Source of the DNA: Microbacterium sp.
GTDB lineage: Bacteria; Actinomycetota; Actinomycetes; Actinomycetales; Microbacteriaceae
DNA: 64,000 nt
Direction: 5' to 3'
NCBI RefSeq assembly: GCF_036823965.1
Contig: NZ_DAITBE010000012.1
Location: 18,522-82,521, forward strand
Positions 12,547 through 56,527 of the stretch are shown here, piece by piece (the stretch's first letter is position 1; each line of letters starts with the position of its first letter). The notes under the pieces were generated by a model. It ran no database searches and was not told the origin of the DNA. It saw only the letters and a list, made by a program, of their open reading frames with translations. A program made the position numbers and the translations under genes.

Positions 12547-12663
12547 GGCCGGATGTTCCCGGCGCGCCGGGGCGGATGTGTCGGTCGCGCGGCGGATGTC
12601 TCGGTCGCGGGGCGGATGTGTCGGTCGCGGGGCGGCCGACGTCTCGGTCGCGGGGCGGATGCC
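12547..12663. repeat. about 5.5 copies of a 20-bp tandem repeat (GGCGGATGTGTCGGTCGCGG)
   Basis: Units at 12571-12590, 12591-12610, 12611-12630 and 12631-12653 (23 bp variant), with a partial unit at 12654-12663 and a degenerate leading unit at 12547-12570. Units are contiguous with no spacers. The array lies 48 nt upstream of the oxidoreductase start. Confidence 0.85.
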
Positions 12664-23430: not shown

Positions 23431-24519
<1,089 letters not shown>

Positions 24520-24528
24520 CCCGTCGAT

Positions 24529-24558
24529 CCTTCGACCCTCCGACGAGCTCAGGGACCC
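24529..24558. repeat. family A repeat fragment abutting the DUF58 start codon
   Basis: CCTTCGACCCTCCGACGAGCTCAGGGACCC immediately precedes ATG 24559. It shares the CGAC..GCTCAGGGACCC core with the copies at 29957-30044, 32323-32346, 36166-36187 and 39791-39858. Confidence 0.7.
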
Positions 24559-25446
24559 ATGGCCAGTCTGATCGCGCAGGTGAAGAGCAAGCTCTTCATC
24601 CATTCGTCGCGCACCTCGATGCATGCGCTCGACGGCGCCTACGCATCGCTGCTGCACGGGCGCAGTCTCGACTTCGAGGACCTGCGCAAGTACGAGTACG
24701 GCGATCAGGTGCGCGACATCGACTGGCGGGCGACCGCGCGGCTCGGCACTCCCCTGGTCAAGCGGCACAGGGCGACCCGCATGCACACCATCCTCTTCGT
24801 GGTCGACACCGGCAGGTCGATGGCCGCGCTGGCCGCCGATGAGCAGTCGAAGAAGGACCTGACGATCCTCGCGACAGGTGCCCTCGGCGTGCTGACCCTG
24901 CGCCATGGTGACGACTTCACCGCCGTGTACGGAGACGCCGCGCGCGTGCGTCGTCTCGCTCCCGGGCGCAGCGAGGGTGCGCTCGAGCACGCCCTGCGCA
25001 CGATCGATCGGGCGATCGACGAGAGCTCGCACCCGAGCGACCGCGACGCCCTGCTCTCGTATGTGACCCGCACGATCTCGCGCCGCATGATCGTGGTGGT
25101 CGTCACCGACGAGGCGCCGATCACCGACGAGACCGAGCGGATGCTGCGCCGACTGCGCGTGCAGCACGACGTGCTCTGGCTCACGGTCCGCGATGCCGAG
25201 CCGGTGCTCGACCACACGACCGACCGCAGCCGCCGAGACGTGGACAGCCGCTGGGAGGTGCCGGACTTCGTGCAGGGCGACCTGGGCATCGTGCAGGAGC
25301 TGGCGGCGCAGACCGCGGCGGATGCCGCGCACCTCGCCGAGACGCTGCAGCGCATGGAGATCAGTCACGCCGTGCTCGACGGACAGGCGGATGCGGTGGC
25401 GCAGCTGCTGCACCTGCTGAACCGGAGGTCGAATGCCCGGTTCTGA
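24559..25446 (+). CDS. DUF58 domain protein (MoxR-associated, VWA-like)
   Basis: GRSLDFEDLRKYEYGDQVRDIDWRATARLGTPLVKRH is the DUF58 hallmark. Confidence 0.85.
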   Translation: MASLIAQVKSKLFIHSSRTSMHALDGAYASLLHGRSLDFEDLRKYEYGDQVRDIDWRATARLGTPLVKRHRATRMHTILFVVDTGRSMAALAADEQSKKDLTILATGALGVLTLRHGDDFTAVYGDAARVRRLAPGRSEGALEHALRTIDRAIDESSHPSDRDALLSYVTRTISRRMIVVVVTDEAPITDETERMLRRLRVQHDVLWLTVRDAEPVLDHTTDRSRRDVDSRWEVPDFVQGDLGIVQELAAQTAADAAHLAETLQRMEISHAVLDGQADAVAQLLHLLNRRSNARF

Positions 25447-25921
25447 CGAGCTGTACCCCCCTGCCCAGTACGGCTGGGGATGGATGCTGCTGGCCATCGG
25501 CGTCCTGATCCTGCTGATCACGGCGGCCTGGCTGGTGATCATGCTGACCCGCCCGCGGCGCAGCATGATCATCGCCGATGCCGGGCAGCGGCCGGTGCTC
25601 ACCACCGATGTGCTCTCGCAGCTGCGGACGGAGTACTTCGAGCGCATCCAGCAGATCGAGACGGACTACCGCGAACGACGGCTGTCGCCCCGCAACGCCA
25701 ACCTCGAGCTCAGCCGAGTCGTGCGCACCTTCGTCAACGAGTACAGCGGCCTCGAAGCCCCGGTGCTCACGCTCGAAGATCTCAAGGCCCGTGGCGTGCA
25801 CCCCGCGCTGCTGGATGCGATGGGCCGCCACTACTACCCGAGCATCTTCCGCCAGGGGCCTCCGGTCGACCCGATCGCCGGCGCCGAAGCGGCGCGGACG
25901 GTGGTGCGCACATGGCACTAG
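25433..25921 (+). CDS. small single-pass membrane protein (occupies the DUF4381-like position of Bat-type operons)
   Basis: 162 aa with GGAGG upstream. N-terminal TM WGWMLLAIGVLILLITAAWLVIML. Overlaps both neighbours. Confidence 0.6.
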   Translation: MPGSDELYPPAQYGWGWMLLAIGVLILLITAAWLVIMLTRPRRSMIIADAGQRPVLTTDVLSQLRTEYFERIQQIETDYRERRLSPRNANLELSRVVRTFVNEYSGLEAPVLTLEDLKARGVHPALLDAMGRHYYPSIFRQGPPVDPIAGAEAARTVVRTWH

Positions 25922-26898
25922 CGAACCTCTGGGTGCTCCTCGCCGCGATCGGGGTGGCCGTGATCGCGATCGCGCTCGGTCTCGTCCTCGGACTGCGCCG
26001 CGGTGGTCACGCCGACCCCGCGGACGCCGCCCGCATCGCTCGCGCCGAACGACTGCGAGCACTCCCCTCCTTCCGCGAGGCACTCGTCCGCCGCACCGTC
26101 GCCCTGACCGGCATCCTCGCGATCGGGGTGATCACCGTCATCGCCGCGGGCGTCGTGGCCGCGCGCCCGATGTCGTCGCAGACGATCCAGCCGGTGAACA
26201 CCAGCCGCGACATCATGCTGTGCCTCGACGTGTCCGGCTCGATGAGCGAGGTCGACGTCGAGGTGCTGAGCGTGTTCGAGGAGCTGCTCGAGGACTTCGA
26301 GGGGGAGCGCATCGGGCTGACGATCTTCAACAGCTCGCCGGTGCAGATCTTCCCGCTGACCGATGACTACGACTTCATCCGCGGACACCTCGAGACCATG
26401 ATGCAGAGCTTCGACTACGTCGACGAGATCCCGGAGCACTGGGTCGGCACGCTGAACGGCAATGGCGCATCGCTGATCGGCGACGGGCTCGCCGCGTGCA
26501 CGATGGGCTTCGACCGCCCGGACGACCAGCGCTCGCGCTCGGTGATCTTCGCCACCGACAACGAGATCAACGGCGCCTCGATCGTCACGCTCGAGGAGGC
26601 AGCCGCGTTCGCCGCCTCGAAGGACGTGCGGGTGTTCGCGTTGAACCCCGTGCAGGGCAAGGATGCCGATGTCAGCGCCGAGCTGACCGCTGCTGCTGAG
26701 GCGACCGGGGGTGCGGCCTTCGGACTCCGCGACACGACGACCGTCGCCGACATCGTCGACCAGGTGCAGGAGCAGGAGGCGACGGAACTGCGCGGCGAGG
26801 CGCAGATCGTGTGGACCGACACCCCGAACCTCTGGATCGTCGTGCTGATGGCCGGGCTGCTCGCGTTCATCGTGGTGCTGTGGAGGGTGAGACTGTGA
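25912..26898 (+). CDS. VWA domain membrane protein (BatA-like)
   Basis: Track ORF 25480..26898 trimmed to Met145 (MALANLWVLLAAIGVAVIAIAL). MIDAS-like DVSGSM in IMLCLDVSGSMSEVD. C-terminal TM. Confidence 0.8.
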   Translation: MALANLWVLLAAIGVAVIAIALGLVLGLRRGGHADPADAARIARAERLRALPSFREALVRRTVALTGILAIGVITVIAAGVVAARPMSSQTIQPVNTSRDIMLCLDVSGSMSEVDVEVLSVFEELLEDFEGERIGLTIFNSSPVQIFPLTDDYDFIRGHLETMMQSFDYVDEIPEHWVGTLNGNGASLIGDGLAACTMGFDRPDDQRSRSVIFATDNEINGASIVTLEEAAAFAASKDVRVFALNPVQGKDADVSAELTAAAEATGGAAFGLRDTTTVADIVDQVQEQEATELRGEAQIVWTDTPNLWIVVLMAGLLAFIVVLWRVRL

Positions 26899-27965
26899 TC
26901 GTCCAGCCCGTCCTGCATCCGCTGCTGCTCCTGCTGCTGTTCGCCCCCGTGATCGCGCTGGTCGTCTGGGTGATCGTGCGACCTTCGCCCCGGAACGCTG
27001 CAGCTGGGTCCCTGCGCTCGTCGAAGGGGGCGCACCGCGGGCTCCGCTCGCACCGCACGGTCTGGTCGCTGCGCCTCGTCATGGTGCTCGCCTGCCTGGT
27101 GATGCTGCTGCGCCCTGGCATCCCGGGAGGCGCGACGCAGACCCTCGCGACCGACACCGACATCCTGCTGGTCGTCGACACCACATCGAGCATCGTGGCC
27201 GAGGACTGGGCCGACGGCCAGCCGCGCCTCGACGGCGTGCGCGACGACGTGGCGGCGTTGATCACCGAATACCCCGGCGCCCGGTTCGCGCTGGTCACCT
27301 TCGACGCGGCCGCGCAGCTGCGGATGCCGCTGACCACCGACACGACCGCGCTGGTCGGGTCGCTCGGGGTGCTGCGCCCCGAGGTCACCAGCCGATCGCG
27401 AGGCAGCTCGATCGGCATCGCGGCGCCGCTGGTCGCCGAGACGCTGAAGGCCGCGGCCGAATCGTCGCCGGACCGCTCGCGCATGGTGTTCTACTTCGGC
27501 GACGGCGAGCAGACCGCGACCTCGACGCCGGAGCCCTTCAGCGCGAGCGCGAAGTACACGGATGCCGGCGCGGTGTTCGGCTACGGCACCGCCGAGGGCG
27601 GACCGATGCGGATCACGAGCGGCGGACTCGGCACCGACGACTCCGGCTACATCGAGTACCAGGGCACTGACGCACGCTCGACCATCGACGAGGCGAACCT
27701 CGAGGCGGTGGCAGAGCAGCTCGGCGTCGAGTACCAGCACCGCACGGCCGACACCCCGCCGACGCTGCCGGAGGCGCCCTCGACCACGACCAGCTACGCC
27801 GAATCCGGCGAGGTCGGCAATGTCACCGAGCTGTACTGGATCGCGGCCCTGCTGATCGTCGCGCTGCTCGGCTTCGAGCTGACGAGAGCGACCATGCTGA
27901 TCGCCCGGCTGCGCGGGCTTCGCGCGCCGCGCCCTTCGCCCCGGCCGGACGGAGGTGCACGATGA
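26895..27965 (+). CDS. VWA domain membrane protein (BatB-like)
   Basis: GTG start at 26895 overlaps the preceding stop (GTGA). N-terminal TM helices. VWA core ILLVVDTTSSIVAED with DxTxS in place of DxSxS. C-terminal TM. Confidence 0.7.
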   Translation: MIVQPVLHPLLLLLLFAPVIALVVWVIVRPSPRNAAAGSLRSSKGAHRGLRSHRTVWSLRLVMVLACLVMLLRPGIPGGATQTLATDTDILLVVDTTSSIVAEDWADGQPRLDGVRDDVAALITEYPGARFALVTFDAAAQLRMPLTTDTTALVGSLGVLRPEVTSRSRGSSIGIAAPLVAETLKAAAESSPDRSRMVFYFGDGEQTATSTPEPFSASAKYTDAGAVFGYGTAEGGPMRITSGGLGTDDSGYIEYQGTDARSTIDEANLEAVAEQLGVEYQHRTADTPPTLPEAPSTTTSYAESGEVGNVTELYWIAALLIVALLGFELTRATMLIARLRGLRAPRPSPRPDGGAR

Positions 27966-28708
27966 GCCACACCGAACCGAACCCCGCGGCCGCGCTGCTC
28001 GCGGCGAACCGTCGGCGCCGGAGCATCCGCCGCTGGATCGCGATCGGCACGCTGCCGCTCACACTCGCCGCCCTGCTGTTCGTCGGCAAGATCCTCAGCA
28101 TGTACGCCTTCGCCCACCAGGCGATCACCTCCTACGTCGTCGACGACTACGCGGGATCGGAGGCCTCGGCTCGCGGCCAGGAGTTCCTGAACTGGTTCGA
28201 GCCGTACAAGGCGCCGTTCAACGTCGGCACAGCGCTGGCCGGAGCCGAGCAGCTGCCGGAGGCCAGGGCCGAACTCGAAGAAGCCCTCGCACTCGCCACG
28301 GGACTCGAGGTGTGCGGCGTGCGCATCAACCTCGCCCTCGTGGTCGAGCGGCAGGGCGATGCCGCCAGAGCAGACGGCGACGGGCCCGGTGCCGCGACCC
28401 TCTACGGCGAGGCCCTCACGATCACGCTCGAGACCCCTGACGAGTGCCGCAGCGACGAGGCGCAGCAGCAGTCCTCCGACCCGCAGCGCGACATGGGGGA
28501 CACGCTCGACGACACGGAGCAGCGCCTCACCGAGAAGCAGCAGGATCAGCCGCCGCCGCCGGAGGAGCAGCCGCAGGAGCAGGAGCCGCAGCCGTCCGAG
28601 GACAAGCTGCAGGACCTGCAGGACAAGCTCGACCAGGGCACGCAGGAGCGGGACCAGCAGCAGGACGACGACGATCCTGGGAGCTCCGGGACGGACAAGC
28701 CATGGTGA
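27962..28708 (+). CDS. membrane-anchored TPR-like protein with acidic/Gln-rich tail (BatC-like position)
   Basis: ATGA overlap with the preceding gene. TM WIAIGTLPLTLAALLFVGKIL. Helical repeats (LPEARAELEEALALA..., ATLYGEALTI). Tail QQQSSDPQRD...PPPPEEQPQEQEPQPSEDKLQDLQDKLDQG. Confidence 0.55.
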   Translation: MSHTEPNPAAALLAANRRRRSIRRWIAIGTLPLTLAALLFVGKILSMYAFAHQAITSYVVDDYAGSEASARGQEFLNWFEPYKAPFNVGTALAGAEQLPEARAELEEALALATGLEVCGVRINLALVVERQGDAARADGDGPGAATLYGEALTITLETPDECRSDEAQQQSSDPQRDMGDTLDDTEQRLTEKQQDQPPPPEEQPQEQEPQPSEDKLQDLQDKLDQGTQERDQQQDDDDPGSSGTDKPW

Positions 28709-29808
28709 TGGACCACGAGAAGCAACGAGCGCGCTACGTCGCCGGCACCGAGGGTGCACCGCCTGTGCCGCCTCCCGGTGGGTACCGCGGCGCGCGTCGC
28801 GCGGATGCGCCGTCGTCGTGGGTGCCGCCGGTGCCCACGGTCGAGACCCTCGACGCCGAGGAGAAGCGATCTGCGAACGCGATCGGGTGGATCGCACTCG
28901 TCGGCAGCATCCTGTTCGTGGTGATCCTGTTCGGCACCCTGATCGCCGGAGCCACCGACGCGCTCTACGGCGTCACCATGCTCGCCCTGCAGCTGCTCGT
29001 GGTCGGCGTGATCGTCGCCGCCCTGATCTCCGCACGAGGACGCCGACTGGGCGCGGTCGCGCTGATCGTGACCATCCTGTTCAACGTCGCGACCGTCGGC
29101 GGCATGAGCGCGCTGCAGACCTCGGCATCCGGCAACTACGACGGAGCGAAGTCCGACGAGCAGAAGCACGCGGAGGCCTACCCCGGCATCAAGGGCACCA
29201 ACCCGCAGGATGTGCTCAGCCAGCAGTCGCTGGAAGCGGTGCGGGCGGATGCGGACAGTCTGTTCGCCGACATCCGGGAGCGGCTGACCGACGAGTTCGG
29301 CTACACCTGGGTGCAGGTGGGCGACGAGGATCTCCGTCCGGAGCGCAACGGCTACGGCGGCGAGTCGATGCTGTATGAGTACACGTCGGTCGGCTGGGCC
29401 ACGAACGAGCCGATCCAGGACTACGCCCGCAAGCTCGAGGTCATGCAGGTCATCGACGACGTCATCGCCGAGCACGGGCTCTTCAGCCTCTACAGCTTCA
29501 ACGAGCCGGCCGTGTCGGGCATCGATCCGACCATGATCGCGAAGCTCTACGGCAGCGACGATCCACGCACCCAGCACACCTGGGAGTACTACACCGAGAA
29601 CTACCCCGACCCGCTGCGGTTCTACGCGAACATCTACGATCTGTCGAACGATCCGAGCGGCGACTTCCGGGCGAACCGCGAGGCGCAGAGCGCACGCACC
29701 GGGGAACCGCTCGAGGGGCTGCAGCTGTCAGTGCTCGGCAGCGCCGTGCTGAGCGAGGCCGATCGCGCCGAGTTCGAGCAGAAGCTCCAGGACTACCCCG
29801 GGTTCTGA
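28702..29808 (+). CDS. hypothetical membrane protein, terminal gene of the MoxR/VWA operon
   Basis: Track ORF 28444..29808 trimmed to Met87 (ATGGTGATG overlaps the preceding stop). Pro-rich N-terminus, three TM helices, then an extracytoplasmic domain of about 230 aa with no motif I recognise. Confidence 0.6.
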   Translation: MVMDHEKQRARYVAGTEGAPPVPPPGGYRGARRADAPSSWVPPVPTVETLDAEEKRSANAIGWIALVGSILFVVILFGTLIAGATDALYGVTMLALQLLVVGVIVAALISARGRRLGAVALIVTILFNVATVGGMSALQTSASGNYDGAKSDEQKHAEAYPGIKGTNPQDVLSQQSLEAVRADADSLFADIRERLTDEFGYTWVQVGDEDLRPERNGYGGESMLYEYTSVGWATNEPIQDYARKLEVMQVIDDVIAEHGLFSLYSFNEPAVSGIDPTMIAKLYGSDDPRTQHTWEYYTENYPDPLRFYANIYDLSNDPSGDFRANREAQSARTGEPLEGLQLSVLGSAVLSEADRAEFEQKLQDYPGF

Positions 29809-29828
29809 CGCGTTCTTCGGGCAACTGG

Positions 29829-30050
29829 CCCCCTTCGGGTCGCTCGGCCTCCTCTTCGGGTCGCTGAGTCCCCCTTTGGGTCGCTGAGCCCCCTTGGGTC
29901 GCTGAGCCCCCCTCTTTGGGTCGCTGAGCTTGTCGAAGCGTCGGGCCCTTCGACAAGCTCAGGGACCCAGGGGGGCGGCTCAGGGACCCAGGGGGGCGAC
30001 TCAGGGACCCAGCGGAGGGCGACTCAGGGACCCAGGGGAGGCGACTCGGC
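29829..30050. repeat. composite palindrome built from tandem repeats (family A), filling the gap between two convergent operons
   Basis: Five left units containing GGGTCGCT(G/C)(A/G)G (29829-29929). Central perfect hairpin GAGCTTGTCGAAG, 9-nt loop, CTTCGACAAGCTC (29926-29960). Four to five right units CTCAGGGACCCAGGGGGGCGA (29957-30044). Confidence 0.9.
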
Positions 30051-30051
30051 G

Positions 30052-31059
30052 TCAGGGTGCGAGACGCAGCAGCATCCGTGCCACGACGAACCGCGCCTGA
30101 CCCCGCGAGGTGCGCGGGTCGTAGCCCAACTGCTCGATCAGGGCGGTCAGCCGCTCCTGCACACTGGAGTGATGCCGACCGAGACGCACGGCCGCGGCAC
30201 GGACGCTCTGCTCGTCGACCACCGCGTCGAGCAGCTCGCGACTGCGATCGTCGAGGGCGGCGAGCGCAGCGGCATCCGGATGCAGTGCTCGTGATTCCGC
30301 AGCCTCGGCGATGAGCAGCACGGCGCCGAGATCGTCGGCGCCGACCACCGGTTCCACGGCCGTCGTCAGCCGGACCGCGATGAGCGCTGCCGTCCAGGAA
30401 TCGGGGAGATGCGCGGCATCCTGCGCCGTCCCGACCCCCACCCGCAGATCGCCGGCGGCGGTCCAGACGTGCTCCTCATCGGTGTCGGCCGGGATGATCG
30501 TCGCGCGGGTCAGACCGTGCCTGGTCGCGACCACGGCGGATGGATGCTGCGGCAGTGGCGCCGGGTCAGGTGGCGAGGCGACGACCCGGAGCGCGCCGGC
30601 CGACAGCCGGAGCCGCTGGAGTGCGGCCGCCCGTTCCTCCGCACTCGTGAACGTGCTGATCGCGACCTCGACGGCGCTCTCCGCATCGCCGGCACGTCGC
30701 GCCCGCAGGATGCCGAGCGCGAGGGTCAGTCGCTCGAGGATCATCGCGTCGTTCGTATGCGGGTCGCCTTCGCGCTCGATCCAGGCGACCGCATCGGGTC
30801 CGCTCTCGCGCAGCATCCATCGCCCGCCCGGGTCGACGGGCTCGATCCGGACCCCGTCGGCCCTGACCCGGATGATCCGGCGCGAATCCCGCTGCCCGAC
30901 GGTCGCTCCGCTGAGCACAGCGGCCCCGCGGAGCATGCTCTCGACGCCGACCGAACGCGCGACCAGCGTGTCGAAGTAGGAGACGACCTTGAGCGTCTCG
31001 CTCGCGTCCGGATCGAGGGCGGTGAGCCGCCCCAGCAGATCTTGCATGTCGGGCTCCAT
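30052..31059 (-). CDS. PucR-like transcriptional regulator (C-terminal HTH)
   Basis: 335 aa. C-terminal VDEQSVRAAAVRLGRHHSSVQERLTALIEQLGYDPRTSRGQARFVVA matches the PucR C-terminal HTH pattern. Confidence 0.65.
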   Translation of the reverse strand: MEPDMQDLLGRLTALDPDASETLKVVSYFDTLVARSVGVESMLRGAAVLSGATVGQRDSRRIIRVRADGVRIEPVDPGGRWMLRESGPDAVAWIEREGDPHTNDAMILERLTLALGILRARRAGDAESAVEVAISTFTSAEERAAALQRLRLSAGALRVVASPPDPAPLPQHPSAVVATRHGLTRATIIPADTDEEHVWTAAGDLRVGVGTAQDAAHLPDSWTAALIAVRLTTAVEPVVGADDLGAVLLIAEAAESRALHPDAAALAALDDRSRELLDAVVDEQSVRAAAVRLGRHHSSVQERLTALIEQLGYDPRTSRGQARFVVARMLLRLAP

Positions 31060-31113
31060 CGCACGGGGATTCCACCCTACGGGGTCGGCCGGCGACCGCG
31101 AGGGTGGAGCGGA

Positions 31114-32085
31114 TCAGCCGAGCAGGCGGTTGACCCAGTCGTCGCGCGCCGCGACCATTGCCTGCGCGACCGCGGAGTGCGGGGCGAAGCCGTCGAAGCC
31201 GTGGAATCCGCCGGCCCACACGTGGAGTTCGGCCTGGACCCCGGCTTCCCAGAGCTTCGAGGCGTAGGCGACGTCCTCGTCACGGAACACCTCGGCGCTG
31301 CCGCAGTCGATGAACGCCGGCGGAAGGCCGGAGAGGTCGGTCGCCCGAGCCGGCGCGGCATAGATGGAGACCTCGTCGGTGCCGACCCGATCGCCGAGCA
31401 GCGCAGTCCAGCCGGTGACGTTGGAGCCGCGGTCCCACACGCCGATGCCGTCGACCTGCTTCGTGGACACGGTCTCGTCGCGGTCATCGAGCATCGGGTA
31501 GATGAGCAGCTGCCCGATCAGCGCCGGGCCCTTGCGGTCACGGGCGAGCAGGGCCGTGCCGGCCGCGAGACCGCCCCCTGCGCTGCCGCCGCCGATCAGG
31601 ATGCGGCTCGCCTCGATGCCGAGCTCCTGCGCGTGCTCGGCCGTCCAGACGAGGCCCGCGTAGCAGTCCTCGACGGGATACGGGTCGGGGAACTCCGGCG
31701 CCAGGCGGTACTCGACCGTGACGATGACGCCGTTGAACCGTTCAGCCCAGTCGAGGAAGCCCGCGACGCCGAGCCAGCGGTTGCCGAGGATCATGCCGCC
31801 GCCGTGCGTGTGGAAGAACCCCGGGCCCGTGCCGGTCCGGCCTGCCTTCGCGACCACCGAGACGACGATCTCGTCGCCGTCGTGGCCGGCGATCGTCACG
31901 TCCCGACGGGTGAAGCCGCGCTCGTCGAGCAGCGCGAAGACATCCTCCGTTCCTGTCACCGGCGATTGCCGCAGCAGTGGGATCATCTCGGGCGTGAGGG
32001 TCGACGGCATCTGGTCGCCGATGAGGGCGAGGGCTGCTTCCAGCTCCGGGTCGAACGGCGGGCAGGCCAGGGTCGTTTCAGCCAT
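31114..32085 (-). CDS. alpha/beta hydrolase, hormone-sensitive-lipase-like esterase
   Basis: Track ORF trimmed to Met24 (MAETTLACPP) with AAAGGAG upstream. HGGG oxyanion motif (FFHTHGGGMILG) and nucleophile elbow GGSAGG. Confidence 0.85.
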   Translation of the reverse strand: MAETTLACPPFDPELEAALALIGDQMPSTLTPEMIPLLRQSPVTGTEDVFALLDERGFTRRDVTIAGHDGDEIVVSVVAKAGRTGTGPGFFHTHGGGMILGNRWLGVAGFLDWAERFNGVIVTVEYRLAPEFPDPYPVEDCYAGLVWTAEHAQELGIEASRILIGGGSAGGGLAAGTALLARDRKGPALIGQLLIYPMLDDRDETVSTKQVDGIGVWDRGSNVTGWTALLGDRVGTDEVSIYAAPARATDLSGLPPAFIDCGSAEVFRDEDVAYASKLWEAGVQAELHVWAGGFHGFDGFAPHSAVAQAMVAARDDWVNRLLG

Positions 32086-32229
32086 CAGAACTCCTTTGTT
32101 CTCGTGTTCTCGCCGTCTGCGTGGCGGCGTCCCGCCAGCATCCTGCACGTCCAAGTCGAGCGTAACCCGCCGCCCGGTACCGCTTCGGCGCGGTTCATCC
32201 GCCGGTTGGCGGGCTCACGGTGTCCCCTC

Positions 32230-32346
32230 GTTCCGGTCGCAGTTCGTGCTCCCCCGCTCCGTTCCGGTCGCAGTTGATGTCGCCCCGGCGCGGATCAGGC
32301 GGCACGAAGTGCGACCGGAACACCTTCGACAGGCTCAGGGACCCAG
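32230..32346. repeat. family B half copy plus full palindromic copy, directly followed by a family A unit
   Basis: Half copy GTTCCGGTCGCAGTTCGTGCTCC (32230-32252). Full copy GTTCCGGTCGCAGTTGATGTCGCC, loop CCGGCGCGGATCA, GGCGGCACGAAGTGCGACCGGAAC (32261-32321). Then CCTTCGACAGGCTCAGGGACCCAG (32323-32346). Confidence 0.8.
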
Positions 32347-32385
32347 CCAACCCAACCGCCCAGCCGGCTCGGGGAAGCGACGAGC

Positions 32386-34699
<2,314 letters not shown>

Positions 34700-34727
34700 T
34701 CCTTCGGCAGCTCGGGAACCATCGAGC

Positions 34728-34761
34728 AGAAGGGGCGGATGCTGCGGCATCCGCCCCTTCT
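34728..34761 (+). terminator. perfect 15-bp-stem hairpin after argG
   Basis: AGAAGGGGCGGATGC-TGCG-GCATCCGCCCCTTCT, followed by GCGTT. It begins 29 nt after the argG stop. Confidence 0.65.
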
Positions 34762-34809
34762 GCGTTCCCGGGCGACGCGAGAGGATGCTGTGAGTCCTCC
34801 GAGTTATCT

Positions 34810-34825
34810 TGCACACTACTGTGCA
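34810..34825. promoter_or_regulatory. TetR operator candidate
   Basis: TGCACA-CTAC-TGTGCA in an AT-richer patch that ends 20 nt upstream of the TetR start codon. Confidence 0.4.
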
Positions 34826-34844
34826 TGATACGTACGATGGAGGC

Positions 34845-35474
34845 ATGACCTCCCGTGCACCCCGCCGTGACGCCGTCGAGAACCGGATCGGCATCCTGTC
34901 TGCGGCCCGCTCCGCGCTCGCGGTCGATCCGCACGCCTCGATCGACACGATCGCCCGCAGCGCCGGGCTCTCACGGCGAACCCTCTACGGGCACTTCGGC
35001 GACCGCGAGGCCCTGATCCGCGAGCTCATCGCGCACGGGGCGCAGCGCTTCAACGCGATCGCCGCATCGGTGACTGACCCCGATGCCCGGATCGCCCTCG
35101 CCCGCCTCGCCGCTCGGCTGTGGCAGGAGACCGCGCACGTGCAGGTCACCGCCGCCCTCGCGCTCGACGAATCGCACGTGGACCACACCGCTGAGGCGCT
35201 CGCTCCGCTGCGCCGCACCGTCGCCGATCTCACACGACGCGGGCAGGACGAGGGCGTCTTCCGCACCGACATCGCCGCGCCGACACTCGCCCGACTGATC
35301 GAGGAGATGGCGCGCGTCGTCGTGTCGCGCACCGACGCATCGCTGCCGGATGCCGCGAACGTCGCCGTCAGCGCTGTGCTCTCGGTCGCCGGACTCTCCT
35401 GGCGAGAGGCCGACGAACTGCTGCGGACGCATCCCGAGATCCTGTCCCCCGAGACCATGGAGGCGCACGCATGA
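34845..35474 (+). CDS. TetR/AcrR family transcriptional regulator
   Basis: Track ORF trimmed to Met13 (GGAGG upstream). HTH ILSAARSALAVDPHASIDTIARSAGLSRRTLYGHFGDREALI. Confidence 0.85.
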   Translation: MTSRAPRRDAVENRIGILSAARSALAVDPHASIDTIARSAGLSRRTLYGHFGDREALIRELIAHGAQRFNAIAASVTDPDARIALARLAARLWQETAHVQVTAALALDESHVDHTAEALAPLRRTVADLTRRGQDEGVFRTDIAAPTLARLIEEMARVVVSRTDASLPDAANVAVSAVLSVAGLSWREADELLRTHPEILSPETMEAHA

Positions 35475-36391
35475 GGATCACTCTGCATGAGGTGAGCAAG
35501 GGGCGCGGCGGGCAGGCCCTCCCCACGACGAGCCTCGAGTTCCACACCGGAGCCGTCCGGTTCGCGATCGCGGAGACCGAGCAGCGCCCGACCGTGCTCG
35601 GCCTGATCGCGAGTGGGCGGATGCGGCCGGAGACCGGCCGGGTGACCATCGACGGCGTCCCGAAGACCAAGGAGATCCGCCGACGCGTCGCGCTGGTCGA
35701 TGCGCCGGATGTCAGTGATCCGCACGCCGACATCACACTCGCCGGCGTCGTCGGCGAGGAGCTCATGTTCGCAGGCGTCGGCGCGACCCCGCTGCACGCG
35801 CGGCGCTGGCTCACGCAGCTCGGCTTCCACGAACTCGCCTCGGTTCCGATCGGTAACATCGACCCCGCCGCTCGAGTGCGCATCCTGTGCGAGCTGGCGG
35901 TGCTCCGCGAGGGCGTCGACGGCGTCGTGCTCGTCTCGCCCGACCGTCACGGCGGCAGTCCGGACGGGTGGTGGCGCATCGCAGGCGAGTTCGCCGACCG
36001 CGGCTACGCGATGCTCGTGATCGTCGGCGGCTCGGCTGCCGTTGCGCTGGAGCGGATGCAGGAGCTCGGCGCCATCAACGCCTCCGGCCCGATCGAGCCG
36101 CTCGTGCTGCCGGACGAGCCCGAGGCGGATGACGCCGGCGCAGACACCGATGACGACTCTCTCCGCCCTTCGACGGACTCAGGGACCGACGCTGACGAAT
36201 TCGCCCCCGCGACGGTCGAGGACACCCCCGACCCCTCGGATGCTGCGCCCGACCCCGGGGTTGCTGCGCCCGACCCCTCGGATGCGGCGCCCGACCCCTG
36301 GGTTGCTGAGCCTGTCGAAGCACCCGATACCGAAGCACCCGATACCGACCCGGCCGAGACCGACACCACCGAGAACGGAGCCACGCGATGA
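35471..36391 (+). CDS. ABC-ATPase-fold protein with degenerate nucleotide-binding motifs and a repeat-derived acidic tail
   Basis: Colinear with ABC NBDs: LEFHTGAVRFAIAETEQRPTVLGLIASGRMRPETGRVTIDG aligns to the xGexxxlxGpNGaGKSTlxxxxxGxxxPxxGxvxxxG pattern. The Walker A position reads AETEQRPTV, the signature position IDPAARVR, and the Walker B position VVLVSPDR. No GK[ST] occurs anywhere in the protein. ATGA overlaps on both sides. Confidence 0.7.
   Translation: MRITLHEVSKGRGGQALPTTSLEFHTGAVRFAIAETEQRPTVLGLIASGRMRPETGRVTIDGVPKTKEIRRRVALVDAPDVSDPHADITLAGVVGEELMFAGVGATPLHARRWLTQLGFHELASVPIGNIDPAARVRILCELAVLREGVDGVVLVSPDRHGGSPDGWWRIAGEFADRGYAMLVIVGGSAAVALERMQELGAINASGPIEPLVLPDEPEADDAGADTDDDSLRPSTDSGTDADEFAPATVEDTPDPSDAAPDPGVAAPDPSDAAPDPWVAEPVEAPDTEAPDTDPAETDTTENGATR
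36166..36349 (+). repeat. repeat-derived segment inside the coding tail of 35471..36391
   Basis: Family A unit CCCTTCGACGGACTCAGGGACC (36166-36187). Four 21-bp units CCCGACCCC(T/G)(C/G)GG(A/T)TGC(T/G)G(C/A)G (36227-36310) encode PDPSDAA/PDPGVAA/PDPSDAA/PDPWVAE. GTTGCTGAGCCTGTCGAAGCACCC (36302-36325). 2 x GAAGCACCCGATACC. Confidence 0.85.
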
Positions 36392-38265
36392 AGGTTCCCT
36401 CCATGATCGCCGCCGAGCTGCGGCGACTCACCGCGAGCAGGATGGGCGTGATCGCGCTCATCGCACTCGTGTGCGTGCCGATCCTCTACGGCGGCCTCTA
36501 CCTGTGGGCGAATCAGGACCCGTACGCGAAGTTCCCCGACGTCCCGGTGGCGCTCGTCGTGGCCGACGAGGGCGCCCCGACGCCGACGACCGGCAACGAG
36601 GCTCCGACCGGCGAGACCGTGAACTACGGCGAGGATGTCGCCGAGAACCTCATCGAGGGCAACGCCTTCGACTGGCAGCGGATGACGGCAGACGAGGCAT
36701 CCGACGCGCTCCGCGATGGCACCGTCGACTTCACCGTGACGGTCCCGACCGACTTCTCGGCTGCGCTCACCTCGGCGGCGGGCGATGCCCCGCACCAAGC
36801 CCGCATCGAGCTCGAGACCAACGACGCGAACAACTACCTCGCATCGTCGATGGGCACGCAGGCCGTCGAGAAGATCCGCAGTTCGGTGGCCGAGATGGTC
36901 GGCAGCGAGGCGGCCGAACGACTGCTCACCGGATTGAGCGATGTGCGCGACAACCTGGTGACGGCCGTGGACGGCGTGACGCAGCTGACGGACGGCGCGA
37001 ACACCGCGGCATCCGGCAGCACCACGCTCGCCGACGGCACGGCGCAGCTCGCCGACGGCACAGCGCAGCTCGCGACCGGCGCACAGACCCTCGCAAGCGG
37101 AGCGCAGACGCTCGCGGGCGGCGCGCAGCAGGTCAGCGACGGCAACCGTCAGCTCGCCGACGTCGCCGACCGTGCCGGCGATGCGGTCCAGCAGGCTGCG
37201 AACGCCCTGCCCCAGGTGCGCACCGACATCGCGAATGCGCTGACCGAGCAGGGCCTCACCCCCGAGGAGGTCGACCAGGTCCTCGCGAAGCTCGACCCCC
37301 TCGGTGCCCGCCTGCAGGAGGGCAACGCACAGGTGCAGGGTGCCGTCGGCAAGGTCGACCAGCTCGCCGCCGGCGCGGCATCCCTCGCCTCGGGCGCCAC
37401 CGAACTCGCATCGGGCGCCGGCACGCTCGCATCCGGCGCCGGCACCGTCGCGACCGGAGCCGCCTCCGCGAACGCGGGTGCGGCGCAGTTGCGGGACGGA
37501 CTGCAGACCCTGGCATCGGGCACGGCCGAGCTGCGCGACGGACTCTCGAGCGGCGTCGATGCCATCCCGGCATCCACTCCCGAGCTGCGAACCCTGCAGG
37601 CCGACACGATCGCCGACCCGGTGCAGGTGTCGAGCGACAAGGTCGCCTCCGCGGAGGACTATGGCGCAGGCCTCGCCCCGTTCTTCGCCGCACTGTCGGC
37701 GTGGATCGGCATCTACGCGCTGTTCCTGATCGTGAAGCCGATCTCGCGGCGGGCGATCACCGCTCTGCACTCCCCCGTGCGCATCACGCTCGCGGGCTGG
37801 ATGACGCCTGCCATGCTCGGCGCCGTGCAGATGGTCGGCCTGATGGGCATCCTCGCCCTCACACTCGGCTTCACGTTCAACCATCCGCTCGGCACGCTCG
37901 GGGTGATGGTGTTCGCTTCGGCCACGTTCGCGGCGATCATCCTGGCGCTGAACGTCTGGCTCGGGTCGGTCGGGCAGTTCCTCGGCCTCGTGCTCATGGT
38001 GCTGCAGCTCGTCACCGCCGGCGGCACGTTCCCCTGGCAGACTCTTCCTGCACCGCTGGCCGCGCTGCATCACGTGCTGCCGCTCGGTTATGTCGTCGAC
38101 GCGATGCGCCAGCTCATGTACGGCGGCAGCATGGGTCGCGCGGGCTGGGATCTCGCGGTGCTCGGGATGTGGCTCGTCGGCGCGCTGCTGTTCGCGATGC
38201 TCGGGGTCACCCGCATGACGCATCGACGCACACTGCGCGACCTGCAGCCGAGCCTGATCGGGTGA
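36388..38265 (+). CDS. YhgE/Pip domain membrane protein (ABC-2-type permease-like)
   Basis: 625 aa. N-terminal TM plus ABC-2-like start (VIALIALVCVPILYGGLYLWANQDPY). Long Ala/Gly/Gln-rich repeat region (TLADGTAQLADGTAQLATGAQTLASGAQTLAGGAQQV...). C-terminal bundle of 5 TM helices. Confidence 0.8.
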   Translation: MKVPSMIAAELRRLTASRMGVIALIALVCVPILYGGLYLWANQDPYAKFPDVPVALVVADEGAPTPTTGNEAPTGETVNYGEDVAENLIEGNAFDWQRMTADEASDALRDGTVDFTVTVPTDFSAALTSAAGDAPHQARIELETNDANNYLASSMGTQAVEKIRSSVAEMVGSEAAERLLTGLSDVRDNLVTAVDGVTQLTDGANTAASGSTTLADGTAQLADGTAQLATGAQTLASGAQTLAGGAQQVSDGNRQLADVADRAGDAVQQAANALPQVRTDIANALTEQGLTPEEVDQVLAKLDPLGARLQEGNAQVQGAVGKVDQLAAGAASLASGATELASGAGTLASGAGTVATGAASANAGAAQLRDGLQTLASGTAELRDGLSSGVDAIPASTPELRTLQADTIADPVQVSSDKVASAEDYGAGLAPFFAALSAWIGIYALFLIVKPISRRAITALHSPVRITLAGWMTPAMLGAVQMVGLMGILALTLGFTFNHPLGTLGVMVFASATFAAIILALNVWLGSVGQFLGLVLMVLQLVTAGGTFPWQTLPAPLAALHHVLPLGYVVDAMRQLMYGGSMGRAGWDLAVLGMWLVGALLFAMLGVTRMTHRRTLRDLQPSLIG

Positions 38266-38326
38266 TCCGCTCCGCGCGCGGCGGCACTGCGGGTCCCCGC
38301 GCGCGGACGTGTGTGGATAGGATGCG

Positions 38327-38377
38327 AGAGCGCGTCCCCGACACGCGCTCTGGGGCTCGGTGGGACTGAGTCCCACC
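38327..38377 (+). other. two perfect short hairpins in the YhgE / acylase gap
   Basis: AGAGCGCGT-CCCCGAC-ACGCGCTCT (38327-38351) and GGTGGGACT-G-AGTCCCACC (38359-38377). No U-tract follows, so the function is unclear (terminator, processing site or leader). Confidence 0.5.
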
Positions 38378-38390
38378 TGGCTACCCGAAA

Positions 38391-41114
38391 GTGTTCTCGA
38401 CGATGATGACCGATTCGCAGACGACTGCCGTCCCCTCACGCCCCTCGCTCGGCGTCCGCATCGGACGCATCGCGTTCCTCGTGGTGGCCGGCATCGTCGT
38501 GGTCGCGGTCGCCGCGGCGTTCTTCGTCACCTGGACGATCCAGCGCTCGTTCCCGCAGACGTCCGGCTCGCTCGAACTCGACGGCCTCTCCGCCGAGGTC
38601 ACGGTGCAGCGCGATTCGCAGGGCATTCCGACCATCACGGCTGACACCACGGGCGACCTGTTCTTCGCCGAAGGCTTCGTGCACGCGCAGGACCGGTTCT
38701 TCGAGATGGACTTCCGACGCCACGTCACGGCAGGACGCGTCGCCGAGATGTTCGGTGAATCGCAGGCGGGAACGGATGCCTTCCTCCGCACGCTCGGCTG
38801 GCGCACGGTCGCCGAGGCCGAAGTCGACGCGATGGACGAGACGACCCTCGGCTACTACGAGGCATACGCCGACGGGGTGAACGCGTATCTCGCATCGCGC
38901 TCCGGAGCGGAGCTCTCATTGGAATATGCCGTGATCGGCATGCAGAATCCGGACTATCGACCCGAACCCTGGGAGCCGGCGGATTCGGTCGCCTGGCTCA
39001 AGGCCATGGCCTGGGACCTCCGCGGCAACATCGAGGACGAGACCGAGCGCGCTCTGCTCGCCGCCGAACTCGACGGCGGCGACGGTGCGACTGCCACCCC
39101 GGAGACGCAGGCCCTCCTGGAGAAGCTCTATCCCGCGTATCCCTTCGACGAGAATCCCGTGATCGTGCCGAAGATCACGGCCGTGCAGGAGGGCGGCACC
39201 GACGCGGACGCCGCGTCGGCCACGCTGCCGGACGACACCGGCATCCAGGAGGCGAGCACCACGATCGAGTGGGAGGAGACCTCCAGCGTGATCGAGGCGG
39301 CGAGCATCCTGGTCGGCGACGTGGGTGAGGGGATCGGATCGAACTCGTGGGTCGTCTCCGGCTCGCTCACCGAATCGGGGATGCCGCTGCTGGCCAACGA
39401 TCCGCACCTCGGCGCCTCGCTGCCGTCGGTCTGGTACCAGGTGCAGCTCAAGTGCTCGACGGTCGATGACGAGTGCCCCTTCGATGTCGGCGGGTTCTCG
39501 TTCTCAGGGCTCCCAGGGGTCGTCATCGGCCACAACCAGAGCATCGCCTGGGGCTTCACCAACCTCACCACCGACGTGACCGACCTGTACGTCGAGCGGA
39601 TCGAAGGCGACCAGTACTGGCGTGACGGCGCGCTCGTGCCGCTGGAGGAACGCACCGAGACCATCAAGGTCGCGGGTGGTGACGACATCGAGCTGACCAT
39701 CCGGTCGACCGGCCACGGACCGATCATCTCCGGACTGACCGACGCCTCCTCCGCGATCGCGGAGGACCCGCTTCCGGGACTGACGGCGGACCCTTCGACG
39801 GGCTCAGGGGCCCAGGAGGGGACTTCAGGGACCCAGGAGGGGACTTCAGGGACCCAGGTGGTGCCGCCCGGGAGCGGCGCAGATGCCGAGTACGCGGTGA
39901 GCCTTCGGTGGACCGCCCTCGACCCCGGCACCGCCGCGACCGCCATCTTCGCGCTCTCGACCGCGCAGGACTTCGAGGGCTTCCGTGCTGCGGCATCTCT
40001 CTTCGATGTCCCGGCGCAGAACCTCATCTACGCCGACACCTCCGGCAACATCGGCTACCAGACCCCTGGTCGACTGCCGATCCGCGGAGCTGGTGACGGA
40101 TGGATGCCGCAGCCCGGTTGGGACAGCAGCTACGACTGGACCGGGTTCATCCCCTTCGAGGAGCTGCCGGTGTCGTACAACCCGAGCTCGGGCTACATCG
40201 TGACGGCGAACAACGCGATCGTCGCTGACGACTACGCGTACTTCCTCTCGCGCGACTGGGACTACGGCTACCGTGCGGCACGCATCGTGCACCTGATCGA
40301 GCGCAGGGCGGCAGTCGCACCGCTCACCGCCGAGGACATGCGCGAGATCCAGATGGACAGCGAGATGTGGATCGGCAAGCGGCTGGCCACCGCACTCGGC
40401 GACATCGAGGTGTCCGGTGCCGGGCCGAAGGCCGCCGTCGACCTGCTGCAGACCTGGGATGCGCAGAACGCGGCGTCGTCCGCCGGCGCCGCCTATGCGA
40501 ACGTGCTGTGGTCGAACCTCGTGCAGAACGTCTTCGCCGACCGCGAGCAGCCGCTGCCGAGCGACGGGCAGGGACGACTGTTCACGGTCGTCTCGACCAT
40601 GCTCGACGACCCCGCCGATCCGCTCTGGACCAACGAGAAGCTCGGCGTCGCCGGCATGCCCGAGATGCTCGCACGGTCGGCGGAGGATGCCTACGACGAG
40701 CTGTCCGCCAGACAGGGCACCGACGTCGACCGGTGGAACTGGGGCGACCTGCACGCGATCACGCTCACGAGCGACACGCTCGGCTCATCCGGCATCGCAC
40801 CGATCGAGGCACTGTTCAACCGCGGCCCGTACCCGGTGAGCGGCGGGGCCTCGGTCGTGAACGCGACGGGTTGGGAGATCGGATCCGACTACTCGACGAC
40901 GACGGTCCCGTCGATGCGCATGGTCGTCGATCTCGCCGACCTGGACGCCTCATCGTGGAACCATCTGACCGGCGCATCGGGGCATGCGTTCCACGCGAAC
41001 TACGTGGATCAGACTGCGGACTGGGCAGCCGGCGTGCAGCGGCCGTGGGCCTTCTCGCCGAAGCAGGTGGATGCCGCGACCGTCGACACGCTGGTGCTGA
41101 CGCCGGCGGGCTGA
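38391..41114 (+). CDS. penicillin acylase family Ntn-hydrolase (penicillin/AHL acylase-like), membrane-anchored or secreted
   Basis: 907 aa with an N-terminal signal-anchor (IAFLVVAGIVVVAVAAAFFV). Alpha-subunit motifs (GIPTITADTTGDLFFAEGFVHAQDRFFEMD). Predicted beta-subunit N-terminal nucleophile in GS-NSWVVSG...PLLANDPHL. GTG start; ATG at 38403 is the alternative. Confidence 0.85.
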   Translation: MFSTMMTDSQTTAVPSRPSLGVRIGRIAFLVVAGIVVVAVAAAFFVTWTIQRSFPQTSGSLELDGLSAEVTVQRDSQGIPTITADTTGDLFFAEGFVHAQDRFFEMDFRRHVTAGRVAEMFGESQAGTDAFLRTLGWRTVAEAEVDAMDETTLGYYEAYADGVNAYLASRSGAELSLEYAVIGMQNPDYRPEPWEPADSVAWLKAMAWDLRGNIEDETERALLAAELDGGDGATATPETQALLEKLYPAYPFDENPVIVPKITAVQEGGTDADAASATLPDDTGIQEASTTIEWEETSSVIEAASILVGDVGEGIGSNSWVVSGSLTESGMPLLANDPHLGASLPSVWYQVQLKCSTVDDECPFDVGGFSFSGLPGVVIGHNQSIAWGFTNLTTDVTDLYVERIEGDQYWRDGALVPLEERTETIKVAGGDDIELTIRSTGHGPIISGLTDASSAIAEDPLPGLTADPSTGSGAQEGTSGTQEGTSGTQVVPPGSGADAEYAVSLRWTALDPGTAATAIFALSTAQDFEGFRAAASLFDVPAQNLIYADTSGNIGYQTPGRLPIRGAGDGWMPQPGWDSSYDWTGFIPFEELPVSYNPSSGYIVTANNAIVADDYAYFLSRDWDYGYRAARIVHLIERRAAVAPLTAEDMREIQMDSEMWIGKRLATALGDIEVSGAGPKAAVDLLQTWDAQNAASSAGAAYANVLWSNLVQNVFADREQPLPSDGQGRLFTVVSTMLDDPADPLWTNEKLGVAGMPEMLARSAEDAYDELSARQGTDVDRWNWGDLHAITLTSDTLGSSGIAPIEALFNRGPYPVSGGASVVNATGWEIGSDYSTTTVPSMRMVVDLADLDASSWNHLTGASGHAFHANYVDQTADWAAGVQRPWAFSPKQVDAATVDTLVLTPAG
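39791..39858 (+). repeat. family A repeat arm embedded in frame within the acylase gene
   Basis: CCCTTCGACGGGCTCAGGGGCCCAGGAGGGGACTTCAGGGACCCAGGAGGGGACTTCAGGGACCCAGG. This has the same unit structure as the right arm of the 29957-30044 element. It is translated as PSTGSGAQEGTSGTQEGTSGTQ. Confidence 0.85.
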
Positions 41115-41118
41115 GGCC

Positions 41119-41180
41119 GGGCCCCTGAGCCTGGGCCCCTGAGCCTGTCGAAGGGAGACGGGCGAAGGGTCCGCTCAGCC
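41119..41180. repeat. family A repeat copies (reverse orientation) after the acylase stop
   Basis: GGGCCCCTGAGCCTGGGCCCCTGAGCCTGTCGAAGGG (41119-41155), followed by GCGAAGGGTCCGCTCAGCC. Confidence 0.75.
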
Positions 41181-41200
41181 GGGTCGGCTAGCGTTGATGG

Positions 41201-53388: not shown

Positions 53389-53787
53389 TCAGCGCACCGG
53401 GATCAGGTGCCGCGGCGGGCCTTCCAGTCGCGCGACAGCGACCTTGACCTCGGTCACCTCATGCTCGACCGCGATCACGCGATCGTCGACACGGTCGAAT
53501 CGCGCGTCGAGCTTGGCTTCGAGGGCATCGAACCGTGCATCGCGCGTGGCGTCCTGAGCCGTTGCGCGCGTCTCGAACTTCACGTCCAGCTGCACGATAC
53601 GCGTGTCCATCTGTTCGAATCGCGCGTCCACCTGCGCGAATCGCGCGTCCACCTGTACGAATCGCGCGTCCACCTGTGCGAATCGCGCGTCCATCCGATT
53701 GAGGAACCAGCCGAAGCATCCGAACATCGCGATGACGATCGTCACGACGCCCCCGATCATCGTGATCACTTCCATCGACACGAACAT
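53389..53787 (-). CDS. membrane-anchored coiled-coil protein built from DARF heptad repeats
   Basis: 132 aa with N-terminal TM VITMIGGVVTIVIAMFGCFGWFL. Then MDARFAQ-VDARFVQ-VDARFAQ-VDARFEQ-MDTRIVQ-LDVKFET...RDARFDALEAKLDARFDRVDDRV. High GC3. Exact start uncertain (53787, 53775 or 53760). Confidence 0.65.
   Translation of the reverse strand: MFVSMEVITMIGGVVTIVIAMFGCFGWFLNRMDARFAQVDARFVQVDARFAQVDARFEQMDTRIVQLDVKFETRATAQDATRDARFDALEAKLDARFDRVDDRVIAVEHEVTEVKVAVARLEGPPRHLIPVR
53596..53700 (-). repeat. 5 x 21-bp in-frame tandem repeat inside 53389..53787
   Basis: Plus-strand units are GATACGCGTGTCCATCTGTTC, GAATCGCGCGTCCACCTGCGC, GAATCGCGCGTCCACCTGTAC, GAATCGCGCGTCCACCTGTGC and GAATCGCGCGTCCATCCGATT. 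The three central units differ only at 2-3 positions. Confidence 0.9.
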
Positions 53788-56448: not shown

Positions 56449-56527
56449 GGCCGGGTCGGTGACAAAGGGCCGGGTCGGTGGGGGCTTGGCCGGGTCGGTG
56501 GGGGCTTGGCTGGGGCGGTGGGCTGCG
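56449..56527. repeat. 4 x ~20-bp G-rich tandem repeat between convergent genes; contains a canonical G-quadruplex motif
   Basis: GGCCGGGTCGGTGACAAAG / GGCCGGGTCGGTGGGGGCTT (x2, identical) / GGCTGGGGCGGTGGGCTGCG. Positions 56480-56522 read G5-N7-G3-N5-G5-N7-G4-N4-G3. Confidence 0.85.

Follow-up and report, generated by a model that had tools for sequence, protein, structure and literature searches.

A palindrome between convergent genes of Microbacterium consists of two hairpin heads of a dispersed repeat family

The prevailing view of REP-type repeats is that they coevolve with transposases specific to a lineage, each repeat having its own sequence. Among REPs, monomers are known to occur head to head and tail to tail, in pairs of mixed class, and in clusters (PMC3733652). 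Surveys have described GTAG-tagged and CGTC-tagged families and acknowledged untagged ones (PMC3733652, PMC6006769). Here, we analyzed a palindrome in Microbacterium that is organized in a similar way. Its motif was absent from both REP surveys, including the REP table of the Y1/HUH survey (PMC3733652, PMC6006769).

Structure of the palindrome and its unit

The window, that is, the whole 64-kb stretch of DNA that was analyzed, has a GC content of about 69% and belongs to a Microbacterium close to M. oxydans. A composite element lies at positions 29829-30047, in the spacer that separates two convergent genes. The left gene (28444-29808, plus strand) encodes a 454-aa product with no Pfam match and stops 20 nt before the element; its ortholog adjoins the empty site in other species. 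The right gene (30052-31059, minus strand), convergent with the left one, encodes a PucR-type helix-turn-helix regulator. Tandem Repeats Finder reported a left array at 29828-29929 (period of 20, 5.1 copies, 82% matches) and a right array at 29958-30047 (period of 21, 4.1 copies, 91% matches). In the assembled sequence, the repeat finder detected five left and four right copies as well as inverted arms at 29908-29938 and 29948-29978, which were 84% complementary and 9 nt apart, and direct reading of the sequence gave a perfect 13-bp inverted core, GAGCTTGTCGAAG / CTTCGACAAGCTC, with a 9-nt spacer. For either strand of the 236-nt element, a single long, imperfect hairpin was predicted (-180.5 kcal/mol with z = -10 for one and -158.8 kcal/mol with z = -9.3 for the other), which was very stable as RNA. 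When the 63-nt center was folded as DNA, values of -25.8 and -25.3 kcal/mol were obtained, with z at about -7.5. The repeat arrays, the inverted core, and the fold of the whole element thus agree with the initial annotation, in which the space between the convergent stops was described as a single composite palindrome.

A consensus scan gave zero terminator-like sites with a T-run in 29600-30300, where the GC-rich hairpin itself is present, and no consensus promoter at the palindrome locus. The canonical G-quadruplex pattern (four G-runs of at least 3, loops of at most 7 nt) was found only in the right arm, on the plus strand. The G-runs of the minus strand are about 14 nt apart, outside the canonical loop limit. 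The quadruplex potential that had been proposed for both strands thus agrees with the usual pattern on the plus strand only.

All left units carry GGGTCGCTGAG and all right units carry CTCAGGGACCC, the complement of which is GGGTCCCTGAG; the one G/G clash per unit noted earlier was thus found throughout. With at most one mismatch, CTCAGGGACCC matched the window 19 times versus 1.8 expected. CTTCGACNNGCTCAG matched it nine times versus 0.28 expected and, unlike the 20-21-nt unit, was common to all window loci. The unit of the family is a 26-nt head, 5'-GG(T)-NNN-TTCGACARGCTCA-N'N'N'-A-CC(G/C)-3'. The repeated 20-21-nt units, which had been taken for the family unit, are half-units that comprise only the 3' half of the head; what defines the family is a hairpin head built on TTCGACARGCTCA, and the base that mismatches occupies a stem position covarying with its partner within each head.

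In the palindrome, a CGC/GCG-class head and a CCC/GGG-class head meet head to head, and each is followed by 3' tails of its own class. On the minus strand, the head CGC-TTCGACAAGCTCA-GCG-ACCC lies at 29916-29945 (covariance model R1, 29.2 bits, E = 2.7e-6). Its tail array at 29829-29915, read on the minus strand, has about 4-5 units of (G)CTCA-GCG-ACCC plus a purine-rich spacer, which are the GGGTCGCTGAG units of the plus strand. On the plus strand, the head GGGCCC-TTCGACAAGCTCA-GGG-A-CCC lies at 29941-29970 (R1, 31.6 bits, E = 5.4e-7) and folds as predicted, with a bulged A; its tail array at 29971-30047 consists of three full 21-23-nt units AGGGGGGCGR-CTCA-GGG-ACCC and one partial unit. The two inverted 13-nt cores form the perfect central 13-bp hairpin with its 9-nt loop at 29926-29960, as seen in the sequence, by the repeat finder, and in the DNA fold. 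Because the arms belong to different stem classes, each of which is copied into its own tails, one G-G (or C-C) mismatch arises per unit: the recurrent G-G mismatch falls on the central pair of the stem triplet, which is flipped between the classes and repeated in each tail. The two distinct arm types that had been proposed instead of random decay can thus be named as the CGC/GCG-class and CCC/GGG-class heads.

Within the head, covariation of NNN with N'N'N' defines a 3-bp stem, for which at least 13 triplet types were seen. The stem A is bulged unless opposed by T, the 3' ACC is conserved beyond what pairing alone demands, and the stem-closing pair nearly always has a pyrimidine on the 5' side and a purine on the 3' side. 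A second genome scan, in which only TTCGACAGGCTCA and the A at position +4 were fixed and the stem was left free, gave at least 142 instances, and among the matches listed, all three triplet pairs were Watson-Crick in 101 of 142, compared with 1.6% by chance. Copies that had not been selected by the query, in loci of the first genome scan (described below), had flanks that differed yet were always complementary, e.g., CCC/GGG, CGC/GCG, TGC/GCA, GGC/GCC, CCT/AGG, and GCGT/ACG. In an alignment of 136 sequences, 71.7% of the cells were paired versus 54.8% after shuffling, and the covariation score was 0.414 versus 0.158. None of 500 shuffles reached either the pairing or the covariation value, and shifting the partner column abolished the signal. 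The fetched loci contained 511 heads versus 9 in the reversed-sequence controls. Against a folded hairpin, single heads folded weakly under standard parameters (-2.5 to -4.4 kcal/mol), no better than shuffles. The logo revealed no extended conservation past -6 to +7 and no GTAG/GT[AG]G or CGTC foot tag, the flanks of the 132 low-GC copies being limited to a 5' GG(T) and a 3' ACC. Wobble pairs gave no significant indication of strand choice (4 G-T versus 10 A-C mismatches).

At many Microbacterium loci, a complete head is followed on its 3' side by tandem tails that share its class. The tail unit is GCTCA-N'N'N'-ACCC plus a spacer of 6-10 nt whose sequence varies by locus, and the period is 18-24 nt. 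To our knowledge, such arrays of 3' half-units are not a described feature of REPs. Among inverted neighbors, mixed-class pairs outnumbered same-class pairs by 53 to 2 at high-GC loci (30 of the mixed pairs being GGG + GCG) and by 23 to 10 at low-GC loci. Mixed-class inverted pairing is thus a rule of the family, and the distinction between the two arms, observed initially at a single locus, is kept in nearly all inverted pairs at high-GC loci. Adjacent heads in the fetched loci were arranged tail to tail in 64 cases, head to head in 37, and in tandem in 95. In a Bellilinea locus (L052, first ~600 nt, reverse strand) and a viral contig (L118, 3221-3306 and 4019-4125), it is complete heads that are repeated in tandem, the periods being 21 and 23 nt; in the viral contig, an inverted head of the same class follows each array.

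Dispersal in the window, among strains, and across bacteria

The covariance model found 7-9 heads in the window. It recovered every other locus of the initial annotation and an extra degenerate copy. The dispersed family that had been postulated has at least seven loci in the window, one of them weak, and hundreds in other genomes, and the match counts in the window were above chance. The weak one, a degenerate head on the plus strand at 24523-24560 (12.2 bits, E = 0.34), lies directly upstream of an ATG at 24559. The extra copy at 27004-27033 (minus strand, 17.7 bits, E = 0.007) has GCGCA replacing GCTCA. A single CCC/GGG-class head with an imperfect 5' stem lies on the plus strand at 32317-32346 (32.4 bits), between two minus-strand genes. 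Within the 3' end of ORF 35471-36391 are a plus-strand head with the loop variant GGACTCA (36161-36190, 20.6 bits) and, at 36227-36327 on the minus strand, a TGC/GCA head (36298-36327; 39.8 bits, the top match in the window) with a 21-nt tail array (36227-36297). A head (39786-39815) with two 21-nt tail units, together at 39786-39858 on the plus strand, lies in frame inside the penicillin amidase gene 38391-41114 (Pfam E = 4e-224). Directly past the stop codon of this gene, at 41111-41160 on the minus strand, is a head (41131-41160, 27.4 bits) with two 14-nt tail units. The genes near the window copies were ordinary (MoxR ATPase, DUF58, VWA, argininosuccinate synthase, TetR, ABC-2 transporter, amidase, and hydrolases).

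Several further features of the window were observed. The confident heads are confined to about 17 kb (24500-41200), with none in 1-24 kb or 42-64 kb. In the last ~230 nt of ORF 35471-36391, the plus-strand head and the minus-strand head with its 21-nt tails encode a low-complexity Pro/Asp/Ala C-terminal tail; the stop of this ORF overlaps the ATG of the next gene. At 12550-12661, a 20-22-nt unit (GGCGGATGTSTCGGTCGCG) is repeated about 4-5 times in tandem; this array is unlike the head family in sequence and may represent another short-repeat family. Two other tandem arrays, at 53583-53695 (21 nt x 4.5, CGCGCGTCCACCTGTGCGAAT) and 56468-56522 (20 nt x 2.8, GGCCGGGTCGGTGGGGGCTT), lie in or near a stretch of lower GC content (54-56 kb, 64% GC), and the first of them may encode heptad repeats on the minus strand. 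Several 21-nt arrays at 37014-37462, inside the gene for an ABC-2 family membrane protein (36388-38265), encode 7-residue LADGTAQ-like repeats.

Comparison with M. oxydans BEL4b indicated gain and loss of heads. The product of the regulator gene 30052-31059 is 95% identical to its BEL4b counterpart, and the surrounding DNA is 91-95% identical. The orthologous convergent spacer is empty (13-70 bp) in 10 other Microbacterium species, while that of BEL4b holds the same GGG/GCG head-to-head pair four times in tandem, at a spacing of about 84 nt and with different tails. At the site of the single head at 32317-32346, BEL4b has no head and an unrelated 15-nt array (GCCGGATGCCGGGAC) instead. Near window position ~27962, BEL4b has two GCG heads upstream of an ATG where the window has none, and at the 27004-27033 site it has an intact head with about five tails versus the degenerate head of the window. 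The amidase gene contains a head and two tails in the window, a head and one tail in BEL4b, and neither in 78 other fetched loci, nearly all from Microbacterium; the insertion site is a hypervariable loop. Polymorphism in unit number, suggested initially as a check, was seen in the tails, and the presence of heads also differed between close relatives. No direct repeat above the control level flanked 193 singletons, that is, no target-site duplication was detected.

For the first genome scan, CTTCGACNNGCTCAGGGACCC was used as the query, and the matches reported are those listed, a lower bound. Among these, most were from Microbacterium, and others were from Treponema, Bacteroidales, Saprospiraceae, and Cecembia at 38-55% GC as well as from Bellilinea, Binatia, and Acidobacteria. 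Overall, heads were found in Actinomycetota, Chloroflexota, Bacteroidota, Treponema, Cyanobacteria, and other groups, at 32-72% GC, and recurred in hundreds of independent assemblies, including those of isolates. One 30-nt CCC/GGG-class head sequence, the only variant tested, had no match at an E-value of ≤10 in 5,426 E. coli genomes, and the 91-nt center had no BLAST match in plasmid and phage collections. Exact heads were rare among viral contigs (14 loci). Translated fragments of the core and of related ones (e.g., ...FDKLR... and ...SLSKG...) are presumably common in spurious hypothetical proteins of many phyla.

The 13-nt center, orientation, and the search for a partner

The 13-nt center, nominally a loop, was nearly invariant and had two internal pairs of its own. 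Core variants with two changes occurred 16 times versus 0 in the reversed-sequence control, and 12 of the 16 were one of two compensatory swaps, namely C6G/G9C (7 times, 4 loci) and T1C/A13G (5 times, 3 loci). Therefore, T1 pairs with A13 and C6 with G9. Core position A5 was free to vary between A and G. A covariance-model alignment of 150 hits was uninformative on the loop because its top hits had invariant loops. On the complementary strand, the center reads T-G-A-G-C-(Y-T)-G-T-C-G-A-A, which would allow two G-A oppositions, each within 5'-YGAR-3', alongside a T:A pair, a G:C pair, and a bulged T, with a loop of two bases closed by a C:G pair. Tandem G-A pairs of the sheared type set in 5'-YGAR-3', like two-base loops of the C(TT)G type, are known from DNA hairpins, and loops of only two bases are disfavored in RNA. 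Thus, the candidate sheared G-A pairs and the two-base loop point to a folded single-stranded DNA hairpin rather than RNA. In an Acidobacteria locus (L060) and a Binatia locus (L054), related hairpins were seen with a core spacer of 3 nt, not 2 nt (TTCGAC-TTC-GCTCA), or with other stems (GTTCGTT/AACGAAC), which suggests a wider superfamily.

Heads were located mostly in intergenic spacers near gene ends and rarely between divergent genes. In co-directional spacers, there was no overall orientation bias with respect to transcription, the sense/antisense counts being 28/42 at low-GC loci and 37/45 at high-GC loci. GGG/GCG inverted pairs between co-directional genes had a polarity, the GGG head being sense in 13 of 14 at about a dozen high-GC loci (e.g., L019, L036, L038, L058, L065, and L101) and the GCG heads antisense by 13 to 2. 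In Bacteroidales, the ACG-class head was sense by 6 to 1. The GGG/GCG polarity could reflect an RNA-level role. Some Treponema inverted pairs precede T-runs in a terminator-like manner, and, together with the polarity, this leaves an RNA or strand-specific role open.

No recurrent gene was found beside the heads; all-against-all clustering of ORFs returned nothing beyond widespread housekeeping families (e.g., ABC transporters, short-chain dehydrogenases, and response regulators). A phmmer search with E. coli RayT detected no homolog among the 12,679 ORFs of the fetched loci and the window, a search of low power at ~8 kb per copy. In agreement with the initial annotation, there was no transposase among the window genes examined, nor was any Y1/HUH-type enzyme found in the sampled DNA. 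The window had no Rfam hit at the gathering score. At E ≤10, the element gave only generic hairpin matches, mostly to microRNA precursor models, with weak ones to psaA and NEAT1_1, and at E ≤1, eight loci of other phyla gave no match on the motif. Searches of the literature with the motif as DNA or RNA strings, as a degenerate consensus, and as encoded peptides returned nothing relevant, and a keyword search returned general REP papers only. The statement that no formal description was known thus holds for the searchable literature, Rfam, and the REP table of PMC6006769. The possibility that the heads mimic rRNA or tRNA was rejected, since the best match to the E. coli rrn operon covered 8-9 of the 11 core positions, which is chance level. 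A by-eye likeness to the tmRNA 5' region, the tRNA T-loop, the tRNA 3' ACC end, and the hammerhead core was dropped because the register did not match the covarying pairs.

Interpretation and comparison with known systems

The lack of an overall orientation bias, of a detected target duplication, and of a linked gene in the sampled DNA, together with the ordinary genes near the window copies and the two-base loop, favors an element that acts as DNA and is mobilized in trans. We thus consider it probable that the palindrome represents two monomers of a small dispersed REP/BIME-like DNA hairpin repeat, a separate untagged family mobilized in trans by a putative enzyme. The heads would reach new sites as single-stranded hairpins via a structure-specific DNA enzyme encoded elsewhere in the genome, for which a Y1/HUH-type transposase may serve as the model. 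The tails would grow and shrink by local slippage or abortive copying. Between the convergent genes, the ~220-nt hairpin probably qualifies as a candidate passive two-way transcription barrier or mRNA 3'-end hairpin. By analogy, the absence of target-site duplication, the head-to-head and tail-to-tail pairs, the mixed-class pairs, and the clusters are consistent with Y1-type biology.

Several results count against this reading: neither a mobilizing enzyme nor a recurrent neighboring gene was found in the sampled DNA, the motif is missing from the REP table of the Y1/HUH survey, the heads have no GTAG or CGTC tag, and single heads fold weakly. A near-invariant loop across phyla is unusual for REPs and could instead mean a universal host factor. 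Tentatively, the head may define an undescribed, bacteria-wide superfamily of structured DNA hairpins, the 13-nt center, with its putative sheared G-A pairs and 2-nt loop, and with the bulged base and ACC tail, being the recognition site of one widespread DNA-processing enzyme or host factor. On that view, the pairing of two stem classes and the arrays of 3' tails would reflect how this factor copies or cuts the hairpin.

Other explanations need to be weighed against a mobile DNA repeat. The heads might be RNA elements for termination, for protection of mRNA 3' ends, or for a conserved RNA-binding protein that contacts the loop, with the palindrome serving as a two-way terminator. The covarying stem, the placement of heads near gene ends and rarely between divergent genes, the T-runs after Treponema inverted pairs, the stability of the long hairpin as RNA, and the polarity of 13 in 14 GGG/GCG pairs relative to gene direction would all fit. 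However, a protein site in an RNA loop would work in one orientation only, and no overall orientation bias was found. The covarying C6:G9 pair leaves a 2-nt loop, of a kind disfavored in RNA, some copies lie in frame inside genes, the palindrome locus has no T-run or terminator-like site, and Rfam gave no match. Thus, an RNA element appears unlikely.

Heads maintained by the host as structural DNA sites for a universal housekeeping protein (e.g., a topoisomerase or a nucleoid or replication factor), and spread by recombination and local duplication instead of a dedicated transposase, would account for a loop and ACC tail that are near-invariant from 32% to 72% GC in many phyla, for the lack of a partner gene nearby, and for the lack of a detected target duplication. 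E. coli REPs, for their part, bind gyrase, Pol I, and IHF. Such sites are nonetheless hard to reconcile with the patchy distribution, which extends to no match in the 5,426 E. coli genomes for the one CCC/GGG-class variant, or with the empty site in ten related Microbacterium species; copies in coding regions and rapid gain and loss at the strain level look selfish rather than functional. We therefore regard this explanation as quite improbable. It is true that the tail arrays are locus-specific in spacer and period (18-24 nt) and that short-read assemblers can miscount tandem units, as would be expected if replication slippage at this one site, or an artifact of assembly, had produced the structure with no family behind it. 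Such an origin is extremely improbable, given heads at 7-9 window sites and in hundreds of independent assemblies and the same head pair at the orthologous site of another strain.

The mobile DNA hairpin repeat favored above has several implications. The same 13-nt core with covarying flanks occurs from Treponema and Bacteroidales at 32% GC to Actinomycetota at 72% GC, which implies a strongly conserved recognition partner or mechanism, as yet unnamed. The family changes genomes rapidly, as spacers differ between strains at 91-95% nucleotide identity and arrays expand and contract, and it could provide markers for typing Microbacterium strains. Copies add peptide segments to proteins, as in the loop of the penicillin amidase and in a C-terminal tail. 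In addition, the repeats yield spurious ORFs and can break short-read assemblies. The head definition is a precise search model and leads to the question of which protein binds the hairpin.

Among the systems compared, Rickettsia palindromic elements (RPEs) are likewise in-frame palindromic repeats that add peptide, as seen here in the amidase loop and the C-terminal tail of ORF 35471-36391. RPEs are 100-150 bp long, confined to one lineage, and unrelated in sequence to the heads, which are 26 nt long and widespread. MITEs such as Correia, ERIC, and Nezha are also nonautonomous, dispersed, intergenic, and often palindromic, but they have IS-derived terminal inverted repeats and target-site duplications, neither of which was seen for the heads. 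Intrinsic (Rho-independent) terminators share the GC-rich hairpin past stop codons, and the element lies between convergent genes; unlike them, it lacks a T-run, has a core conserved across phyla, and is multicopy in both orientations. The subterminal hairpins of IS200/IS605 and other Y1/HUH elements resemble the heads in being small imperfect DNA hairpins with an extrahelical base and no target duplication. Hairpins of this kind are recognized as single strands, which provides a model for head movement. In contrast to them, the heads have no linked transposase gene in the sampled DNA and, in the logo, no conserved cleavage tetranucleotide beside the hairpin.

The closest likeness in organization is to REPs, BIMEs, and REPINs. 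Both groups are short hairpin repeats with many intergenic copies and some copies inside genes, both occur as singletons, inverted pairs (often of two monomer types), and clusters, and both have stems with a bulged base and no target duplication. The head family differs in lacking a GTAG/GT[AG]G or CGTC foot tag. REPs combine a conserved stem with a short or variable loop, whereas here the 13-nt center is near-invariant and the stem triplet is free. Moreover, REPs coevolve with lineage-specific transposases, while the loop of the heads is nearly the same across phyla. The element is therefore filed as REP/BIME-like in organization but outside the tagged REP families, and it may belong to a new superfamily if one conserved partner explains the invariant core.
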